This document shows positions 4,168-14,606 of a stretch of DNA of 64,000 nucleotides, in pieces. The notes beneath the pieces were generated by a model, which was not told where the DNA came from, ran no database searches, and saw only the letters and a list, made by a program, of their open reading frames with translations. A program made the translations under genes and the position numbers. Position 1 is the first letter of the stretch, and each line of letters opens with the position of its first letter. This DNA is from Candidatus Eiseniibacteriota bacterium (GTDB lineage: Bacteria; Eisenbacteria; RBG-16-71-46; CAIMUX01; WJJG01), in the NCBI GenBank assembly GCA_023129715.1, contig JAGMBO010000049.1:53600-117599 (forward strand), given 5' to 3'.

Positions 4168-6642
4168 GTGTGCCGCGCGGTGCGCGGGATGGAAGGAGGG
4201 GTCGTTTTGCGGACCAAAGCTCGCTGCTTCTCACCCAGGGCTGCGGGATGGACGAGCGCGCTGCTGCCGCTGCTGATCGCATTCGTCGCGGCTGCGGTCT
4301 GCGCCACTCCGGCGGGAGCGATTCTCCAGGCAGGATTCGAGGCCACCGCACCGCCATCGACCGAGCGGGGCCCGAGCGAGATCCAGCCCTCGGTTTCCCA
4401 GCGCTCTTCGTTGATCGGTGAGCCGGCCCCCCCCTTCGCACTGCCCACGGTTACGGATGAGCAGATCGTCTATAGCGATACGCTCTTGGAGTCTGCGGCC
4501 GTGACTCTGCTGACCTTCTGGACGACCCACTGCGCTGAATGCATCCGGCGCCTGGAGATCTGCCAGGAACTCGATCGCTGGGGGCGGGAGGATGGGGTGC
4601 GCGCCTTCGGGGTCAATTTCGATGAGACCCCCAGCGCGCGCATCCAGCTCATGGTGCGCCAGGCGACTCCGCAGGTGACCCATGTCTTCGATGCCGGCGG
4701 CCAGACGGCAGCCCGCTATGGGGCAGGCGCCCACAGCTTCAGCGTCTTTCTCATCGATGCCGCCCGGATCGTTCGCGATGCCTTCTTCGAGATCCCCGCC
4801 GACTCCCTGGCCGGATTGCGGCCCCGGCTGAGCCGCTTGATCGAGGAGGCCTATGGTGGGGGCGAAGAGGGGCTGACCGGCACAGAGATGGTCACGACGA
4901 CGGTCTCGGCCGCCGCACCGGCAACGGCCCCGCCCCAGGACGCGGAGGAGGCAAAGCCCTTGGCTCTGGCCCAGGATGCGGCACCGGCAACGACTCCGGC
5001 TCCGGCCCAGGGCGCGGCGCAGGCAACGACTCCGGCTCCGGCCCAGGATGCGGAGCCGGAACCGGCGCGTTCCGGGCTGCTCGAGGAGTTCGGGCTGCTC
5101 AAGCGCCAGCGCCTCGAGGTCCATGGCGTCGGGCGCGTGCGCTGGATGCACATCAAGGGGAGCGGGGAAGACCCCACCGGGTCCTACGGCGAGCGCATCG
5201 ACCCGGGCGCCTCCCTGCGCCATCGCCTGGAACTCCAGATGATCTATGCCGTTAGCGCCAAACTTCGCGTCGGCGGCCTGCTCTGGTTGAGCAATGAGGG
5301 TGAGGCGGTGCTGCGCAGCGGCCCCGACTACCTCACCAGCGCGTGGGGCAGCGCGTTCATTCGCTACGACACCTCGGCCCGCTTGGGCTGCCTCGGGCGC
5401 CTGCGGGCCGCGTTGCGCGCCGGCTACTACGATCTGCACTTCACGCCGCTGACCCTGATGCGCTGGGACAAAGACGATTCCCCGATCAGCGGCGGCCAAC
5501 GCGTTCAGGGATGCGCCGTCTGCGGCGGTGAGGCGGGCCTGGCGGGATTCATCCGCTCGGAGAGCGTCGAGAAGCTCGGTCCCGACTACACCTTCGAGGG
5601 CGCGCGCGCCGATCTTTCACTCGGCGGGAGCCTTGATCTGACAGCGATCTACGCGCGGCCCCGCGAGTCCTGGCCGGAGCATCGCGGCGAGATCAGCCCG
5701 GAGACACGCACCGAATTGACCTACCGCCAGGAGATCTACGGTGGACGGCTGACCGGGTTGATTCCCCTCGCCTGGACCTCGCAGCCGGCGACCCTCTCCT
5801 CGACCCTGCTCTTGATCACCGACGACACCGAGGACTGGCCCTGGGGCGAGACCTACGGGATCTGGCCCGAGTACGCGCCGGGCACGGTCCGCTTGCTGGG
5901 GGGGGATGTCGTCCTGCCGCTGCCCTCGCGGATGGAACTGCGTGCCGAGCTGCTCCAGAGCCGCTGGGACGAGGAGACCCGGGAGGTGGGCGAGCCGAGC
6001 CCGGACCATGCCAATGCCTTCCGGGGCGAATGGATCCTCGATCTGCGGTCCGGCGGGGCGGAGCCGCTCGACTGGCTGCTCGGTCTGCTGGCTCCCGATA
6101 TGACCGCCAAGATCAACCTTGCCTACCAGCGCAGTGGGGCGGGGTTCTTCTCGCCATACGGGGCGCTCTCCTATGATGTTAACCTGCGTCCCTCACCCCA
6201 GGTGATCCAGCCGGGACTCGAGGGGCCGCGCGCCTGGATGCGAGTCGATTGGCGGATCTTCGGCGGGGGTGTGTTCGGCAAATGGCTCGATCCGGTCGAC
6301 CCGCACGCCACCGCCGAGACGGGCGGCGCTTCCGGGGTGCCCGGGGGGAAGTGGCGGATGACGAGCCTGTGGGCCGATGCCGCGCTCTGGCCCGGGGGCG
6401 TGTTGACCGCCGGCTGGGTGCGGGATGAGCGTGATCCGCTCGCGGTCCAGACCGAGACTCTGCGCGAGGAGCGCCGCACACTGGTGGTCGGCCTCGAGCA
6501 GGAGCTGGCGCCCCGCTGCGTGCTGCTCCTCGAAGGGCAGTTCCTCGACGGCGTGCGCGAACCGGTCGATGACGCCGCGGGCTTGATCGAGGAGGACTAC
6601 TCGACCCGCACGCTGCGCGTGATGCTCGACGTCGAGTTCTAG
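4168..6642 (+). CDS. Fusion protein: signal peptide, TlpA/ResA-like thiol:disulfide oxidoreductase domain (CxxC = HCAEC), Ala/Pro-rich repeat linker, then a ~520-aa beta-rich C-terminal domain ending in Phe (possible outer-membrane beta-barrel)
   Basis: LLTFWTTHCAECIRRLEICQELDRW is a thioredoxin-fold CxxC block. Linker repeats APATTPAPAQGAAQATTPAPAQDA. C-terminal alternating hydrophobic pattern, with terminal ...RVMLDVEF. True start probably lies downstream of 4168 at the signal peptide LLPLLIAFVAAAVCATPAGA. Confidence 0.55.
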   Translation: MCRAVRGMEGGVVLRTKARCFSPRAAGWTSALLPLLIAFVAAAVCATPAGAILQAGFEATAPPSTERGPSEIQPSVSQRSSLIGEPAPPFALPTVTDEQIVYSDTLLESAAVTLLTFWTTHCAECIRRLEICQELDRWGREDGVRAFGVNFDETPSARIQLMVRQATPQVTHVFDAGGQTAARYGAGAHSFSVFLIDAARIVRDAFFEIPADSLAGLRPRLSRLIEEAYGGGEEGLTGTEMVTTTVSAAAPATAPPQDAEEAKPLALAQDAAPATTPAPAQGAAQATTPAPAQDAEPEPARSGLLEEFGLLKRQRLEVHGVGRVRWMHIKGSGEDPTGSYGERIDPGASLRHRLELQMIYAVSAKLRVGGLLWLSNEGEAVLRSGPDYLTSAWGSAFIRYDTSARLGCLGRLRAALRAGYYDLHFTPLTLMRWDKDDSPISGGQRVQGCAVCGGEAGLAGFIRSESVEKLGPDYTFEGARADLSLGGSLDLTAIYARPRESWPEHRGEISPETRTELTYRQEIYGGRLTGLIPLAWTSQPATLSSTLLLITDDTEDWPWGETYGIWPEYAPGTVRLLGGDVVLPLPSRMELRAELLQSRWDEETREVGEPSPDHANAFRGEWILDLRSGGAEPLDWLLGLLAPDMTAKINLAYQRSGAGFFSPYGALSYDVNLRPSPQVIQPGLEGPRAWMRVDWRIFGGGVFGKWLDPVDPHATAETGGASGVPGGKWRMTSLWADAALWPGGVLTAGWVRDERDPLAVQTETLREERRTLVVGLEQELAPRCVLLLEGQFLDGVREPVDDAAGLIEEDYSTRTLRVMLDVEF

Positions 6643-8076: not shown

Positions 8077-9402
8077 GTGATGCCAGGACAACGATCGAGG
8101 AACGCCGGTGTGCCGGGCAGCCGACGGGGCTCTCTTCCGGGCGATCCGGGCTGGGGGACGCTACTCTGGCGGCCGTTGCGGCTGGTGGCGCTCGTCTATC
8201 TCGCACTGCTCGGAACCGGTGGTCTTGCCGGCGTTTGGGTGCCGGCGGCGGCCCAGGATGCCGCCGCGCCGGTGGCATCAGAGGTGTTCTCCCCCGCTCC
8301 CGAGGGACACATCCCTCCGCCGGAACTGCCCCTCGACTTCTCCGTCGTCGATACGCCTTCCGATGACGGATCATCGCTGACGCTGCGATGGGATCCCGAT
8401 CAGGTCATGCAGACGCTGGGGGTGGCCACGATCGCCGCCCTAACGTTCGCGCGGCGCGCGGTCGAAGAGACCGAATTCCTGCCGGTGGGTAGAGCCCGTG
8501 TCCGCGATGGGGAGTTCCGTGACGCGGGCCTGGAGTCGGGAGTCGCGTACATTTACCGCATCGGTTTGGAAGATGAAGACGGACTCCTGCGCAACACGGC
8601 GGCCTCGGCCCCGCTCGTCCCGCAGGCCAACTTCTTCCGCACCCACCGGACCAACGCGCTGATTCTCGTGCTCCTGATGTTCGGCCTGGTCGTCGGCTTC
8701 ATTCTCGCCGCGCGCAAGGGCATCGATCTCTTCATCCGCCGGATCGCCGGCCTGGATGCCATCGCCGAGGCAGTCGGTCGCGCTACCGAAATGGGGCGCA
8801 AGATCCTTTATATCCCCGGGATCATCAGCGTCAACGAGCCACAGACATTGGCCAGTCTGGGCATCCTTGGCTATGTCGCCAAGCTGACCGCCCGCTACGG
8901 AACCAAGCTCGAGGTGCCCAACATCGATCCGCTGACGATGGCCGCGGCGCGCGAGATCGTCAAGCAATCCTACCTCGAGGAAGGCACACCCGAGGCGTTC
9001 AACGAAGACATGATCCACTACATCACCCAAGACCAGTTCGCCTACGCGGCGGCGGTCAACGGCATCATGGTGCGCGATCGCCCGGCGGCCATCTTCCTGC
9101 TCGGCTGGTTTGCCGCCGAGTCGCTGCTGCTCTCGGAGACGGGGCAGAGCGTGGGGGCGATCCAGATCGCCGGCACCGCCCAGGTCACCCAGCTGCCCTT
9201 CTTCGTCGCCGCCTGCGACTACACCATGCTGGGTGAGGAGCTCTTTGCCGCCAGCGCCTATCTCTCCAAAGATCCCCTGATCCTCGGATCGATCAAGGGA
9301 CAGGACATGGTCAAGGCGGTGATCCTGGTTGCGATCGTCGTCGGGGTGATCATGGTCTCGGCCGGTGTGCCCGGCTTCGCAGACTTGTTCTCCGCGCTCT
9401 AG
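8077..9402 (+). CDS. Membrane protein A: signal peptide, periplasmic Ig/FN3-like region, TM, conserved ~230-aa domain, C-terminal TM
   Basis: Strong GC3 bias. Hydrophobic segments LILVLLMFGLVVGFILAA and VILVAIVVGVIMVSAG. The internal domain shares motifs with the 10169-11023 product (GTAQVTQLP vs GTTAVSAPK; LGSIKGQD vs GVIGGMKGASE). Confidence 0.6.
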   Translation: MMPGQRSRNAGVPGSRRGSLPGDPGWGTLLWRPLRLVALVYLALLGTGGLAGVWVPAAAQDAAAPVASEVFSPAPEGHIPPPELPLDFSVVDTPSDDGSSLTLRWDPDQVMQTLGVATIAALTFARRAVEETEFLPVGRARVRDGEFRDAGLESGVAYIYRIGLEDEDGLLRNTAASAPLVPQANFFRTHRTNALILVLLMFGLVVGFILAARKGIDLFIRRIAGLDAIAEAVGRATEMGRKILYIPGIISVNEPQTLASLGILGYVAKLTARYGTKLEVPNIDPLTMAAAREIVKQSYLEEGTPEAFNEDMIHYITQDQFAYAAAVNGIMVRDRPAAIFLLGWFAAESLLLSETGQSVGAIQIAGTAQVTQLPFFVAACDYTMLGEELFAASAYLSKDPLILGSIKGQDMVKAVILVAIVVGVIMVSAGVPGFADLFSAL

Positions 9403-9465
9403 AGCAGCGCAAAGGCAGCGGCGGGGTGATCGCACCGCGCCTGGTACGGATCAGAAGGAAGGGTC

Positions 9466-10104
9466 ATGAAGAGACAAATCCCGATCATGCTGGCGATCAT
9501 CGCAAGCGTCTGTCCGGTGATCGCGTTCTTCTTCCCCGACCGGTGGATCAATGAGTGGTTCAACCAGAGGCTCGACGCGTGGATGGTGATCATCGCCAGC
9601 TTCGCCCTGTTGCTGGGGATCGTCAGCATGATCCAGGTCAACATCCACAAGATCCGCCGCCGGGCGAGGGGTTGGGGCTTCAGCATTATCATTCTCGTGA
9701 CCTTCACGCTGATGGCGGCCTTTGGCCTCTTCGGTGGCCAGGGGGAGCGAGCCGACGGCAGTCTCTATCCCTTCACCTGGATGTTCCAGTTCGTCTTCTC
9801 GCCGTTGCAGGCGACGATGTTCTCGCTGCTGGCCTTCTATGTCGCCTCCGCTTCCTACCGGGCCTTCCGCGTGCGCAACGTGGAGGCGACCCTGCTGCTG
9901 ATCGGGGCGTTGATCATCATGGTGGGCCGGATTCCGCTGGGGACCCTGATTCATCCGTTGGTTCCCGACATTGCGGAGTGGGTGATGAAGTTCCCCAATA
10001 CGGCCGCACAGCGCGGGATCATCATCGGCGCCGCGCTCGGGGCGGCGTCGATGTCGGTGCGCGTGATGGTGGGGATCGAGCGGCCCTACATGGGGAAGAG
10101 CTAG
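9466..10104 (+). CDS. Polytopic membrane protein B (212 aa), paralogue of 11023-11673
   Basis: Five to six hydrophobic helices. Matches the gene-4 product: YVASASYRAFRVRNVEATLLLIGAL vs FGASFGYTVMGRISLLIGRL. Confidence 0.6.
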   Translation: MKRQIPIMLAIIASVCPVIAFFFPDRWINEWFNQRLDAWMVIIASFALLLGIVSMIQVNIHKIRRRARGWGFSIIILVTFTLMAAFGLFGGQGERADGSLYPFTWMFQFVFSPLQATMFSLLAFYVASASYRAFRVRNVEATLLLIGALIIMVGRIPLGTLIHPLVPDIAEWVMKFPNTAAQRGIIIGAALGAASMSVRVMVGIERPYMGKS

Positions 10105-10168
10105 GCATGCGCGCGATCCAAGCCGGAGACCGGTGTCGGCTGGTTAATAAGCGATGTGAGGTGGATGC

Positions 10169-11023
10169 ATGAGCTGGGCAGACAGACTGCTATTCGTGGA
10201 CCGGAGGATCATCTTCCTCTTCGTCTTCGTCGGGGCACTCGTGCCGATCATCGCACCGATCGGCCTCGGCGTGACCGTCTCCCCCCCGGTGCAACAAGTC
10301 TTCGATCGGATCGAGGAGATGCAGCCCGGGGATGCGGTGATGATCGCATTCGATTATGGTCCCTCGGACGGCCCCGAGCTCGACCCGATGGCCAACTCGA
10401 TCCTGCGTCATTGCCACTTCCGCGGGGTCAAGGTAGTCGGCCTCTCGCTCTTTCCGCTGGGGGGCGTCGACATGGCGATTGCGCGCATGCGCCAGCTCGC
10501 CGATGAGCTCGGAGCCGCCGACGGCGTCGGCTGGGTCAACCTGGGCTACAAGGATGGAGCCCAGGCCCCGATGAAGGCGATGGGCGAGAATATCGCCAGC
10601 GTCTTCCCTACCGATGCCAACGGCGTGCCCTATGAAGAGATCGCCATGCTCGAGGGCCTCCGCAACTACAACAACTTCGAGATGGCCATCTCCCTCGCCA
10701 CCAGCATCCTCGGCGAGTGGTGGATCAACCTGGTCAACGCGCAGTTCGGCATCGACGTCGCCATCGGCACTACCGCCGTCTCCGCGCCGAAATATTACGC
10801 CTACATGGAGGCTAAGCAGACTCTGGGCGTGATCGGCGGCATGAAGGGCGCCTCGGAGTACGAAGAACTCGTTGAGCGCCACTATCCGCAGGCCAAGGGG
10901 CTTTCCCGAACGGCGACGATGGGGATGGACGTGCAGTCGATTGTCCATCTGGTCATCATCTTCTTCATCCTCTTCGGAAATCTGATGTTCATCGTGACGC
11001 GCGGGAAGAAGGAGGCGAAGTAA
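10169..11023 (+). CDS. Membrane protein C: N-terminal TM, soluble domain homologous to the A domain, C-terminal TM
   Basis: N-terminal helix IIFLFVFVGALVPIIAPIGL. C-terminal helix IVHLVIIFFILFGNLMFIV. GC3 bias favours the + frame over antisense ORF 10190-10948. Confidence 0.6.
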   Translation: MSWADRLLFVDRRIIFLFVFVGALVPIIAPIGLGVTVSPPVQQVFDRIEEMQPGDAVMIAFDYGPSDGPELDPMANSILRHCHFRGVKVVGLSLFPLGGVDMAIARMRQLADELGAADGVGWVNLGYKDGAQAPMKAMGENIASVFPTDANGVPYEEIAMLEGLRNYNNFEMAISLATSILGEWWINLVNAQFGIDVAIGTTAVSAPKYYAYMEAKQTLGVIGGMKGASEYEELVERHYPQAKGLSRTATMGMDVQSIVHLVIIFFILFGNLMFIVTRGKKEAK

Positions 11024-11673
11024 TGGAGCTGCAACTGCCTGGGTTCGGTCAGTGGATCGCAGCGTTCTTCACGCTCTTTGTCTTCAGCTTCCTCTACAAG
11101 GATAACATCCTCTATCGCTTTGCCGAGAGTGTCTTTGCCGGCGTATCATTCGGGTACTATATCGGACTGGCGTATATCAATACGCTGGAACCTAACCTGT
11201 TCAGCCCCCTCTTCGGGGATTTCTCGTCAAACTGGTCCTTGTTGATTCCCTTCGCATTTGGGGTGCTCCTCTACCTCCGGTACGTTCCGAAACTCGCCTG
11301 GATCTCGCAGTGGTCGCTGGCGGTCTATATCGGGTACTACATCGGCGTCAACTTGCTCCAGCGACTGCACGGAGAAATCCTGCCGCAGACGAAGGGAACG
11401 ATGCTGCCGCTGAACGTCGAGTTCGGCCAGCTGATCGGCAACTTGGTGGTGATCGTCGGTGTGATCACAGTGTTGATCTACTTCTTCTTCTCGAGTCCGC
11501 ATCGGGGACCGCTGAAGCCCGCCGCGCGCACGGGGATCTATTTCCTGATGATCTCCTTCGGCGCGAGCTTTGGCTATACGGTGATGGGCCGTATCTCCCT
11601 GCTGATCGGCCGGTTGACCTTCCTCGTCGACGAGTGGGCGCGGCCGCTGGTCGCGACGGTCTTCGGCGGCTAG
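11023..11673 (+). CDS. Polytopic membrane protein B' (216 aa), paralogue of 9466-10104
   Basis: Start overlaps the stop of the previous gene (translational coupling). Multi-TM. Similar to B as noted above. Confidence 0.6.
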   Translation: MELQLPGFGQWIAAFFTLFVFSFLYKDNILYRFAESVFAGVSFGYYIGLAYINTLEPNLFSPLFGDFSSNWSLLIPFAFGVLLYLRYVPKLAWISQWSLAVYIGYYIGVNLLQRLHGEILPQTKGTMLPLNVEFGQLIGNLVVIVGVITVLIYFFFSSPHRGPLKPAARTGIYFLMISFGASFGYTVMGRISLLIGRLTFLVDEWARPLVATVFGG

Positions 11674-11704: not shown

Positions 11705-12469
11705 ATGCCCGGTTCAGTCCGCAAAGCTCAGATCCGCCAGCGAGTCTGGGAGCGCCTCACCCGCGAGGGGGTGGCGCTCTTCCCGGGTGCCTATGGGCGC
11801 ACGCCCCGTTTTCGCGGCCAGGACCGAGGCATCGCGCTGCTGCGGGATCTCCCCGTCTGGCATGCGGCGCGGCGCATCCTCGTCCAACCCGACCTGGGGC
11901 TCGAGCAAGTCCGGCGCCAAGTGCTCGCCGACGGCAGGACGTTGATCGTTCCCGATCTCTCGCGCACGGAGCCGGGGTGGATCCTCGAGGTTGCCCCCGG
12001 TGAACCCCTCCCGGCATTCGGCCTCGGGGTCCCCGGCCGGGCCGCCAAGGAGACGGCGGCGCAGCACTACCTGCGGGGGTCCGCGACGGCGCCGGTCGAT
12101 CTGTTGATCGTCGGAGCGGTGGCGGTCGACCGCCGGGGCACGCGCATCGGCCGGGGCTTGGGCAGCGCCGATCTCGTCTATGCCCTGGGGCGTGACCGGG
12201 GCTTTGTACGCCCCGAGACGCCGGTGGTCGTGCTCGTTCACCCGCTGCAATTCTTTGACGAGCATACGGATAGAGAGCCGACCGACCTTCCGATCGATAT
12301 CGTGGTGACCCCCGCTGAGGTCGTCGCGGTGCAGGCCGTGGTGATGCGGCCCAAGGGACTCCACCCGCGCATGATCACACCCGAGCGCCTCGGCCGCTTC
12401 CCCGGACTGCGCCGCATCCTTGAGCGTGAGGGGATCGACCTGCCGCCGGGCGTGGTTCCTCAGGGCTGA
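11705..12469 (+). CDS. 5-formyltetrahydrofolate cyclo-ligase family protein
   Basis: N-terminus IRQRVWERL. Block VDLLIVGAVAVDRRGTRIGRGLGSADLVY matches the D..G.RlG.G.GyYD signature. At 254 aa it is longer than typical. Confidence 0.55.
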   Translation: MPGSVRKAQIRQRVWERLTREGVALFPGAYGRTPRFRGQDRGIALLRDLPVWHAARRILVQPDLGLEQVRRQVLADGRTLIVPDLSRTEPGWILEVAPGEPLPAFGLGVPGRAAKETAAQHYLRGSATAPVDLLIVGAVAVDRRGTRIGRGLGSADLVYALGRDRGFVRPETPVVVLVHPLQFFDEHTDREPTDLPIDIVVTPAEVVAVQAVVMRPKGLHPRMITPERLGRFPGLRRILEREGIDLPPGVVPQG

Positions 12470-12703
12470 GAGCCTCTCCCGCTGGTCTCGCCCCCCCCGC
12501 CCCACACACGCCGGTTCTTGCTAGTCCTCAGCAGCCTCTCCGCGCATATCCCGGATCTCCGCCGTTCATGGAGAAGCCCCCCGAGCGGGTCGATCTATCA
12601 GTTGCGGGCCGTCTGCCGCGGGCGATAGGCTCGGTGTTCGGGTTTGAGCGGCCCCGCCCGTGTGCATCGGGTGGAAGAGGACAGCGCAGGAAGGAGCAGG
12701 ACG

Positions 12704-13666
12704 ATGGGGATCTTCGACGGGTTGTTCGGCAAGAAGAAGATGGCGGCTCCGACGCCCGTCGCGCGGCGGCCGTTGATGGCCCCCGGGGGAATGGGCAAGC
12801 GCCCCGATCCGCTCTACGACGAGATGAACAACTACATCATCGTGATCCTCGATAGTTGCCGCTACGATTCCTTCCTGGCGGCCGAGCCGAAGGTGATCAC
12901 CAAGCTCGGGCCGGTCGAGCGCCGCTGGAGCTACGCTTCCTGGACGGCTCCCTCGCATTACAACCTGCTGATGGGCCTGCTGCCCCACACCAGCCCACCG
13001 CACGTCTATGCTTCCGACTATTACAAGGAGGACTTCATTCGCTTCAACGAGCGCTTCGGGGCCAAGGATATCGAGTTCGCCAGCTTTGTGCCCCACCTCT
13101 TCATGCCGACCTACTTGCGCAAGACGCTCGGCTACTTCACACACGCCAAGGTCTCATTGCCGGTTCTCAATCCCAAGACACCGATCAACCGCGACTTCGA
13201 TACCTTCAAGCTGATGGAGAAGCACAACGACATGAACGCGATGCTCGACGAGATGACCTTCTCGAGCGAGCGGCCCTCCTTCTATCTCTTCAACGTTGGT
13301 GAGACGCACTATCCCTACGCCCGTCCGACGGAGCCGAAGAACCTCTGGCCCCGCCTGAGTGGCGTCCATGGCGTCTTCAAACATCTCGACGACCATGTTA
13401 CCGAAGGCAAGTTGAAGGATGGAGGCAAGACAGAGCCCTTCTTCGACCAGGAGAAGCTCGATATCCTGCGTGGCCGCCAGATCGATACGATCCAATATCT
13501 CGAGGAGGTCTTCACACGCCTCTACGACATGGTGCCGAAGAATACCTACATCACCGTGACCTCCGACCATGGCGAGCTTTTCGGCGAGGAGGGCTACTTC
13601 GGCCACGGACCCATCCAGCACGACAAGGTTTACGAGGTGCCTTTCCTCGAGGGCAAGATCCGCTAG
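12704..13666 (+). CDS. Alkaline-phosphatase/sulfatase superfamily protein (metal-dependent hydrolase or transferase)
   Basis: Start MGIFDG with AGGAG ribosome-binding site. VILDSCRYDSF has a Cys/Ser nucleophile-like context. Metal-binding TSDHGE block near the C-terminus. Confidence 0.45.
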   Translation: MGIFDGLFGKKKMAAPTPVARRPLMAPGGMGKRPDPLYDEMNNYIIVILDSCRYDSFLAAEPKVITKLGPVERRWSYASWTAPSHYNLLMGLLPHTSPPHVYASDYYKEDFIRFNERFGAKDIEFASFVPHLFMPTYLRKTLGYFTHAKVSLPVLNPKTPINRDFDTFKLMEKHNDMNAMLDEMTFSSERPSFYLFNVGETHYPYARPTEPKNLWPRLSGVHGVFKHLDDHVTEGKLKDGGKTEPFFDQEKLDILRGRQIDTIQYLEEVFTRLYDMVPKNTYITVTSDHGELFGEEGYFGHGPIQHDKVYEVPFLEGKIR

Positions 13667-14021: not shown

Positions 14022-14606
14022 CTACGCGATCTTCTCCACCGGGCCGGCAGCTTCCGCCGGTGGTCCGCGCCGCTCGAACGGGTCTCGTCCTCCTGTGCGC
14101 GTGATGCTTTTCAGGATCTTGTCGACTACCTCGGGCTCTGTGATCACCGAAACCACCTTCATTCCCGACCCGCATTTGGGGCACAAAAGCGGGTCGATCT
14201 CGAAGATCCCGTGGAGCAGCCGCGCCCAGCTTGGCTGCGGGCGACGATACGCCTCCTCGCCTTCCGGAAGTCCTGCAGGTGGGCCACACGCCGCCGCCCC
14301 CGACGCTGCCGGATCCTCGGCCTCCTTCCCCGCGTTCTGGATCGCATTGCGTTTCCGATTCGCGTAGGCGCCATGGTAGCGAACCTGATGGGAGTAGGGA
14401 AACGAGACCAGGGCGGCCAGTCGTCGGAGAAAGTCGAGCGGTTCGAGGAGCAGATGGGTGGCCCATTGTTCATTCGGCCAAGGACGGCGCATGCGGTAGA
14501 CAATCTTCCCGTCCGGACGCCGGGAGAGGCGCTCCGCGGAGAATGGAGCACGAAGTCCGGTGTCACCAATGGTCGCATACGGACCAAGAAAGACACAGTA
14601 GATCAC
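14022..14606 (-). pseudogene. IS91-family (Y2) transposase, C-terminal fragment only; N-terminal half missing
   Basis: LDFLRRLAALVSFPYSHQVRYHGAYANRKR matches the IS91 block (FirRl..HvlPkgfhkiRYyG...r). Terminal CPKCGSGMKVV zinc ribbon. At ~195 aa against ~400 for intact IS91 TnpA. The missing 5' part would overlap pepF. Confidence 0.7.

Follow-up and report, generated by a model that had tools for sequence, protein, structure and literature searches.

A 64,000-nucleotide stretch of DNA from Candidatus Eiseniibacteriota, which we refer to as the window, carries four genes that raise the question of what kind of membrane system they encode. The original prediction was a tandemly duplicated two-gene membrane module, A-B followed by C-B'. 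We found that all four open reading frames are real genes and that their coordinates hold. All are on the plus strand: gene A (8077..9402; 441 aa, with the public gene call beginning at the ATG at 8080), gene B (9466..10104; 212 aa), gene C (10169..11023; 284 aa), and gene B' (11023..11673; 216 aa). The C/B' junction is a TAATG overlap, by which B' is translationally coupled to C.

Gene order was compared in 22 genome loci drawn from Eisenbacteria, Marinimicrobia, Zixibacteria, Myxococcota, and Acidobacteriota. The A-B-C-B' order was kept in 19 of them; two exceptions are cut at a contig end (L001 and L017), and the third holds A alone (L003). It was also present in all nine further annotated neighborhoods with a full cassette (L023 to L027 and L029 to L033; of these, L023 and L024 belong to the window's own contig, and L029 samples the L005 contig a second time). 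Conservation of the neighborhood, which had been proposed as a check, was thus borne out. Homologues of A fall into at least 7,990 clusters (90% identity), all annotated as DUF6754. Those of B form at least 5,917 clusters, and those of B' form 2,036 at 50% identity. Two loci, L016 and L018, each contain two complete cassettes. The copied unit is therefore the whole four-gene set and not the two-gene half, and this is the pattern expected for paralogous transport systems. Natural C-B' fusion proteins also exist (P0451 and P0468), and together with the TAATG overlap they argue for a physical association of C with B'. The cassette thus consists of four integral membrane proteins, unrelated at the sequence level and each strongly conserved, that are inherited jointly across at least five phyla.

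All four proteins had been thought to lack a family. For A this was incorrect, because its residues 183-436 match Pfam PF20539 (DUF6754) with 380.9 bits (E = 3.1e-114; cutoff, 27), covering profile positions 2-255 of 257, end to end. However, DUF6754 has no assigned function and covers A alone. Its obligatory partners B, C, and B' had no family match in Pfam, NCBIfam, PADLOC, PHROGs, or PDB sequences, and a relaxed Pfam threshold applied over all alignment members returned scattered hydrophobic noise. These three proteins are invisible to every annotation library tested. We found no publication on DUF6754/PF20539 or on Eisenbacteria membrane complexes in the literature. The cassette is conserved as a unit across several phyla and matches no characterized system. 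With no family beyond a DUF and no papers, the view of it as one membrane protein module outside characterized families, and as a good candidate for an undescribed system, stands.

A begins with a signal peptide (8077..8253, plus strand), followed by a periplasmic Fn3 domain, a transmembrane (TM) helix, the DUF6754 alpha/beta domain, and a C-terminal TM helix. The signal peptide spans approximately aa 1-59 with a hydrophobic core at 33-55 (helix 26-48 in the AlphaFold2 [AF2] model). Read from the sequence, it is of the cleavable type, with a probable cleavage site at ...VPAAA/QD, and not the N-terminal TM helix assigned earlier. Orthologues in L003 and L011 bear classical AxA signal peptides. 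The anticipated periplasmic Ig/FN3-like domain was found: residues ~85-175 (8329..8601, plus strand) are an Fn3 domain by beta-sandwich fold or sequence profile, and the domain is optional within the family. The DUF6754 region (8623..9384, plus strand) consists of a TM helix (189-213), the alpha/beta domain (224-397), and a second TM helix (400-428). K+R counts are 4.6 after the TM helix versus 1.4 before it, and the alpha/beta domain is therefore predicted to be cytoplasmic. Fifty residues of this domain are invariant across phyla, including E238, E348, E354, C380, D381, E387, and E388, and D284 is invariant in the alignment of closer homologues only. The most conserved stretch, residues 343-392, is only mildly hydrophobic and has a pLDDT of <50 in an AF2 model with a mean pLDDT of 74. 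Such conservation of the cytoplasmic domain exceeds what a transporter accessory domain normally shows and looks just as much like that of a catalytic site.

C has an N-in TM helix, a Rossmann-like alpha/beta domain (aa 39-238, nt 10283-10882, plus strand), a C-terminal TM helix, and a cytoplasmic K/R-rich tail. Its alpha/beta domain is predicted to be periplasmic, so the topology analysis places the soluble domains of A and C on opposite sides of the membrane. A fold search with C returned generic Rossmann-like matches only. Invariant residues of C and A are located in loops after beta strands, which are the usual ligand site of Rossmann-like folds. Additional invariant residues of C are in its C-terminal TM helix (M253, Q256, H260, G270, and N271). 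Q256 and H260 of C, like the invariant Q409 and K413 of A, are in the last TM helix of the protein.

B and B' each have ~6 TM helices, in line with the earlier description of both as multi-TM proteins. B is predicted to be N-in/C-in, with K+R counts of 10.4 inside versus 3.0 outside, and has an invariant cytoplasmic loop, YRAFRxRNxE. B' is predicted to be N-out. The C-B' fusions carry one extra TM helix in the linker, which places the B' N terminus outside, and some B' homologues contain periplasmic Ig-like TIG or beta-rich inserts. The topology of the four proteins was assigned from the K+R bias, the signal peptide and Fn3 domain of A, the fusion linker TM helix, and the periplasmic inserts of B'. 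A search for internal 3+3 repeats in B or B' gave nothing significant (the best comparison, the N-terminal half of B' with its C-terminal half, had 15% probability).

These proteins probably form one hetero-oligomeric inner membrane complex with ~16 TM helices (2+6+2+6). Its periplasmic face would present the Fn3 domain of A and the Rossmann-like domain of C, and its cytoplasmic face the very highly conserved DUF6754 alpha/beta domain of A. B and B' would contribute variable loops to the former and conserved charged loops to the latter. The best explanation, although we hold it only tentatively and at less than even confidence, is that the cassette encodes a complex for ATP-independent, ion gradient-driven translocation of a small polar substrate. 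In this mechanism, which is speculative, the tethered periplasmic domain of C might capture the substrate in a crevice of conserved beta-alpha loops. B and B' might form the membrane pathway, lined by C-terminal helix residues of A (K407, Q409, D410, and K413) and C (D254, Q256, H260, and N271), and the cytoplasmic domain of A might receive, gate, or modify the substrate. Genomic context is the only hint of what the substrate could be: peptides or amino acid-derived compounds, or cargo from TonB-dependent receptors. The invariant loop residues of C and A have the signature of a binding site, which we count in favor of translocation. We also count in its favor the conserved gene order, the association of C with B', the duplication of whole cassettes, the predicted topology, the lack of any output domain in the neighborhoods, and the peptidase and TonB context. 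However, the domain of A is too conserved for a typical accessory domain, and no component has a transporter family match at the sequence or profile level. Both count against a transporter.

How the cassette arose is a separate question, and the tandem duplication of a two-gene module did not survive alignment. The A/C and B/B' comparisons had been chosen beforehand to decide the matter, and neither gave significant similarity. B and B', described as clear paralogues, aligned with a BLASTP E value of 0.3 and an hhalign probability of 0.1-0.3% (22 to 170 sequences per profile; 141 and 170 in the largest run). A and C had been assigned a related soluble domain, but the values were a BLASTP E of 1 and an hhalign probability of 0.7-1% (up to ~100 sequences per family plus secondary structure), and only the order of elements matches. 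The opposed orientations of B (N-in) and B' (N-out), with equal size and TM count, do recall the pairs of EmrE/SMR, Fluc, short-chain CHR, and NqrD/NqrE proteins. However, the two partners in those pairs are recognizably homologous, whereas B and B' have no similarity to each other (0.3% by hhalign) and no matches to those Pfam families.

A modified form of the duplication idea is possible but fairly improbable. C+B' might be an ancient copy of A+B, inverted in the membrane and diverged in sequence, in which case the four proteins would form a pseudo-twofold antiparallel assembly with one alpha/beta domain per face. The two halves are similar in size (a DUF6754 region of ~255 aa plus 212 aa for B versus 284 aa for C plus 216 aa for B') and equal in TM count (2+6 in each). 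Residues 189-428 of A and 12-283 of C both run TM helix, helix, five beta-alpha units, helix, TM helix. Convergence is nevertheless plausible, since many proteins have a five-stranded Rossmann-like layout and many have six TM helices. The predicted orientations are mirror images (A out-in-out and B in-in versus C in-out-in and B' out-out), and A-B-C-B' is the gene order that a tandem duplication would leave. Against this, loop lengths and insertion hot spots fail to line up by index between B and B', and the sequence signal is absent from the alignments described above. The sole local hhalign match between A and C pairs Q409/K413 with Q256/H260, and it is not significant (P = 0.09). The idea bears on origin and architecture and leaves room for a transporter.

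It is unlikely, in our estimation, that the cassette represents a previously unrecognized class of inner membrane machine built from two such mirror-oriented modules, A+B and C+B', derived from an ancient inverted duplication and assembled as a 16-TM antiparallel pseudosymmetric complex. In such a machine, the two Rossmann-like domains, one per membrane face, could serve as gates or receptors that alternate, and the class would have a wide distribution in uncultivated FCB group phyla, Myxococcota, and Acidobacteriota.

The cassette could instead be a membrane-bound enzyme or envelope biogenesis complex in which the cytoplasmic DUF6754 domain of A is catalytic. A might act, for example, on a substrate that is lipid linked or nucleotide activated, with B and B' holding or flipping the lipid-linked intermediate and C acting on it in the periplasm. 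We consider this doubtful. The searches turned up no family or motif of a glycosyltransferase, phosphotransferase, or acyltransferase, and sugar or lipid pathway genes are not consistently linked to the cassette. C did have GT-B matches, but they were weak (TM-score, ~0.3; E, ~1e-4) and engineered GPCR fusions match likewise, so the matches reflect the generic fold. In addition, no Ser, His, or Cys of C beyond the TM helix is invariant in the phylum-wide alignment.

A redox-driven or ion-translocating complex like Rnf/Nqr is very improbable. It would place an opposed, ~200-aa, six-TM pair between membrane-anchored cytoplasmic Rossmann-type and periplasmic subunits. However, neither B nor B' matched PF02508 even at E values up to 1, and they have no invariant cysteines for an Fe-S center. 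C lacks both a GxGxxG and a flavinylation (SGAT) motif, its domain is predicted to be periplasmic, and other electron transfer subunits are not linked to the cassette.

Several known systems were rejected. GldF/GldG-type systems, which occur in FCB group lineages, combine a ~220-aa six-TM ABC-2 permease with an ABC_transp_aux protein (N-terminal TM helix, periplasmic alpha/beta domain, and C-terminal TM helix). C shares the build of the auxiliary protein, and the cassette also occurs in FCB group lineages. However, there is no ABC ATPase in ~30 neighborhoods and C has no ABC_transp_aux match. ABC2_membrane_3 was sub-threshold in 2 of 22 B proteins (best E, 0.001), and an ABC transporter was rejected. 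So was an RCK-KTN identity of C, as in Trk/Ktr potassium uptake: identity is 6-13%, and C has no TrkA_N Pfam match or GxGxxG glycine-rich loop. Its domain has a membrane anchor at either end and a predicted periplasmic location, unlike the cytoplasmic RCK domains, and the cassette has no TrkH/KtrB-like subunit. An anti-phage defense or phage system (no PADLOC or PHROGs match) and a viral or mobile origin were dismissed, with no relatives in IMG/VR.

Whichever class it belongs to, strong conservation of a four-subunit membrane complex makes it very likely that the cassette has a central role in physiology; nutrient uptake, ion homeostasis, and envelope maintenance are examples. Its large families span several phyla that occur abundantly in sediments, in soils, and in the ocean interior but have few or no cultured members. 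Defining the cassette would give an annotation to thousands of genes now called "hypothetical" and could reveal a new architecture of transporter or membrane machine. If the mirror image arrangement is real, it would be a rare case of inverted-topology evolution at the level of a multigene module.

The surroundings of the cassette differ between lineages. No neighbor gene common to the lineages is conserved beside it, nor is any ATPase, and no kinase or other output domain was seen in any neighborhood. A GlmL family ATPase and a 376-aa gene adjoin A in L015, L016, and L018 only, being absent from the window and the other loci, and we treated them as lineage specific. The 376-aa protein matched no family and no PDB entry. 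Promoter and terminator scans were at chance level, and no riboswitch or regulator tying the cassette to a ligand was found. An M29 aminopeptidase is directly upstream of the cassette in the window's clade, and TldD/PmbA is directly downstream in L033. Peptidases make up 16 of 135 neighboring genes, a raw count over nonindependent loci that carries no phylum background rate. A TonB-dependent receptor is in the gene array of the cassette in L011 and L026. This peptidase and TonB context is lineage limited. The riboswitch and RNA search of the window plus 24 loci yielded a single hit, a cobalamin riboswitch in L011, which we considered too little evidence for a corrinoid transporter. It lies 5.4 kb upstream of the cassette and directly 5' of the TonB receptor gene, and most simply it controls that adjacent receptor.

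The window holds four adjacent genes on the forward strand: A (8077-9402; 441 amino acids [aa]), B (9466-10104; 212 aa), C (10169-11023; 284 aa), and B' (11023-11673; 216 aa). These clearly are genuine genes, and the original prediction had placed all four co-directional open reading frames (ORFs) exactly. All four have a purine-rich ribosome-binding site ahead of the start codon. A and B are separated by 63 nt and B and C by 64 nt, and C and B' share a one-base stop/start overlap (TAATG). The same four genes are called in the public record that contains the window, a 122-kb ENA metagenome scaffold. Using each protein as a tblastn query, we found orthologues at 22 loci among GTDB species representatives (E values of 1e-40 to 1e-146).

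Neighborhood conservation had been suggested as a check, and it came out in favor of a single system. The order A-B-C-B' is kept at 19 of the 22 loci, across several phyla. The exceptions are two loci that end at a contig edge (L001 and L017) and one with A only (L003). Nine further annotated neighborhoods have the same order (among the neighborhoods compared, L023 and L024 come from the contig of the window itself, and L029 resamples the contig of L005). The lineages include Eisenbacteria, Marinimicrobia, Zixibacteria, Myxococcota, Acidobacteriota, and unclassified groups. All-against-all comparison of the flanking ORFs revealed no further gene family common to different lineages. Translation of B' is coupled to that of C, and in some cases the two form a single fused protein. 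A also stands alone, with none of the other three genes close by, at L003 (5944-7077) and L028 (10001-11122); the genome with the latter also holds a full cassette on a different contig (L030). The Fn3 domain of A is optional, being missing from a protein of only 258 aa at L026.

A is listed only under a DUF (DUF6754, Pfam PF20539), and B, C, and B' matched none of the libraries searched. The families are large: at least 7,990 clusters at 90% identity for A (all DUF6754), at least 5,917 clusters for B, 786 clusters for C (counted among word-sharing candidates), and 2,036 representatives at the 50% identity level for B'. Source names throughout are "hypothetical protein," "DUF6754 domain-containing protein," or "fibronectin type III domain-containing protein." A literature search found nothing published on the cassette, and it has none of the defining features of the known systems considered. 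Therefore, the proposal of a candidate undescribed membrane system stands. We rate the cassette as outside known kinds, although a distant relationship to a known transporter superfamily may yet emerge from the folds of B and B'.

The proposal that the cassette is a tandemly duplicated two-gene module (A-B/C-B') was not supported, and B and B' are not the clear paralogues described. A lack of significant A/C and B/B' similarity had been named in advance as refuting it, and this was the outcome of our alignments. BLASTP gave E values of 1 for A versus C and 0.3 for B versus B'. Profile-profile comparison of phylum-wide alignments gave probabilities of 0.7% and 0.1 to 0.2%, respectively. With profiles of approximately 100 sequences and AF2 secondary structure, the A domain versus C still reached only 1%, and profiles of 141 B and 170 B' sequences (150 of the latter being representatives at the 50% identity clustering level) gave 0.3%. 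We found no significant internal repeat in B or in B'. At the 22 loci, the B query never matched at the B' position, nor the C query at the A position. Where duplication has occurred naturally, it copied the whole set: L016 (5824-13207) and L018 (5854-13162) each have a tandem pair of complete A-B-C-B' cassettes, and each copy is approximately 32 to 43% identical to the window's proteins.

What A+B and C+B' do share is architecture (element order in A and C, sizes, and transmembrane [TM] counts), not sequence similarity. The AF2 model of C (mean pLDDT, 84.8) has a TM segment (residues 12 to 28), a helix, a Rossmann-like three-layer domain made of five beta-alpha units, another helix, and a long C-terminal TM helix (residues 248 to 283). 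The modeled DUF6754 region of A has the identical element order. We predicted sidedness from positive-inside K+R counts averaged over each family. For A, the count is 4.6 right after the TM segment versus 1.4 before it; together with the preceding signal peptide and Fn3 domain, this suggests that its alpha/beta domain is cytoplasmic. For C, the termini have higher counts (4.0 at the N terminus and 4.8 at the C terminus) than the domain side (1.2 and 2.0), suggesting that its alpha/beta domain is periplasmic. Therefore, these domains are predicted to lie on opposite sides of the membrane. B is strongly predicted to be N-in/C-in (10.4 inside versus 3.0 outside).

The orientation of B' is ambiguous from charge alone. 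Variants in its family include C-B' fusions, loop inserts, and N-terminal extensions (P0451, P0468, P0366, P0407, P0441, and P0436). In both natural C-B' fusions (P0451 and P0468), the linker carries a single additional hydrophobic helix, and this places the B' N terminus in the periplasm. This agrees with an IPT/TIG insert in loop 4-5 of one member and with N-terminal signal-anchor and beta-rich extensions in others. The remaining loop 4-5 inserts, like that one, fall in a range of 170 to 380 aa and match no known family. B genes of Marinimicrobia (L012 to L014 and L019) and Myxococcota (L015) have inserts of 90 to 290 aa in the TM3-TM4 loop, also predicted to be periplasmic. Large lineage-specific inserts are always in loops predicted to be periplasmic.

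By predicted sidedness, A+B and C+B' would be modules matched in size and TM count (2+6) with mirror-image orientations. This could reflect a very old inverted duplication or coincidence. The shared architecture fits such a duplication, a reading of origin and architecture that would be compatible with transport, but the lack of sequence similarity leaves it rather unlikely. The cassette appears to encode a membrane complex that is large, widely spread across phyla, entirely unannotated, and unusual in this mirror-image layout.

Support for any mechanism is far weaker than for the existence of the four-subunit complex and for its topology. With 50 invariant positions, A is more conserved than the other subunits. 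Conservation in A peaks at residues 343 to 392, a stretch that is only mildly hydrophobic and where AF2 confidence collapses; this pattern suggests a putative intersubunit or ligand site. Invariant residues of A and of C (in C, P65, E70, P73, G126, G130, D149, W185, G224, and E232) are mostly in loops after beta strands, the classical ligand crevice. The last TM helix also has invariant polar residues (Q409, D410, and K413 in A; Q256, H260, and N271 in C). Foldseek matched the C model to OtsA (E value of approximately 1e-4; TM-score of approximately 0.3) and to engineered GPCRs with a Rossmann domain set between two TM helices, so the match reflects a generic fold. No ATPase, kinase, or other output domain was beside the cassette in any neighborhood examined. 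Our tentative proposal, which we hold as possible rather than probable, is a translocation complex that runs on an ion gradient and does not depend on ATP. In this scheme, C would serve as a periplasmic receptor on a membrane tether, B and B' would make up the membrane pathway, and the cytoplasmic domain of A would be an acceptor, gate, or modifier. A membrane-bound enzyme or envelope biogenesis complex is doubtful and somewhat less likely than an inverted duplication. An Rnf/Nqr-like redox or ion machine is very improbable; the cassette has no cofactor motif.

Neighboring genes gave weak hints, none of them general. Peptidases account for 16 of 135 annotated neighbors; an M29 peptidase gene adjoins the cassette upstream in the window's clade, and a TldD/PmbA gene adjoins it downstream in L033. 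Genes for TonB-dependent receptors or ExbB homologues are near the cassette at L008, L011, L016, L018, and L026. At L026 (9217-15312), the cassette and, after it, a DUF1028 gene and a TonB-dependent receptor gene are separated by gaps of 3 to 6 nt and look like one operon. At L011, a cobalamin riboswitch (305-515; 88.8 bits) directly before a receptor gene heads a same-strand array with the cassette at its end, 5.4 kb downstream. An Rfam search of the window and 24 loci found no cis-regulatory RNA adjoining the cassette. Two genes adjoin A at L015 (2614-5710), L016 (1589-5378), and L018 (1553-5339). One encodes a GlmL-family actin-fold ATPase, an accessory protein for B12-dependent mutases, and the other a conserved protein of 376 aa that matched no family and no PDB entry. 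The pair is divergent from A at L016 and L018, and at L015 the end of the 376-aa gene (5710) overlaps the start of A (5707).

Marinimicrobia loci always have two small family-less ORFs (approximately 150 and 105 aa) 5' of A and a UPF0047 gene after B'. In the window, a 5-formyltetrahydrofolate cyclo-ligase family gene (11705-12469, forward strand) starts 31 nt after B' and is followed by a sulfatase/alkaline phosphatase superfamily gene (12644-13666, forward strand) with a weak STM4013-family match. Conservation of these two genes is limited to close relatives (L002 and L005), so they do not belong to the core cassette. Upstream, a forward-strand gene (4168-6642) kept in close relatives L002 and L029 encodes a protein of 824 aa whose N-terminal AhpC/TSA-redoxin domain (residues 83 to 206) is fused to a family-less C-terminal part of approximately 500 aa. 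Downstream, a reverse-strand ORF (14022-14606; 194 aa) with a CPKCG zinc ribbon-like motif at its end resembles a transposase C-terminal fragment and may be a mobile-element remnant.
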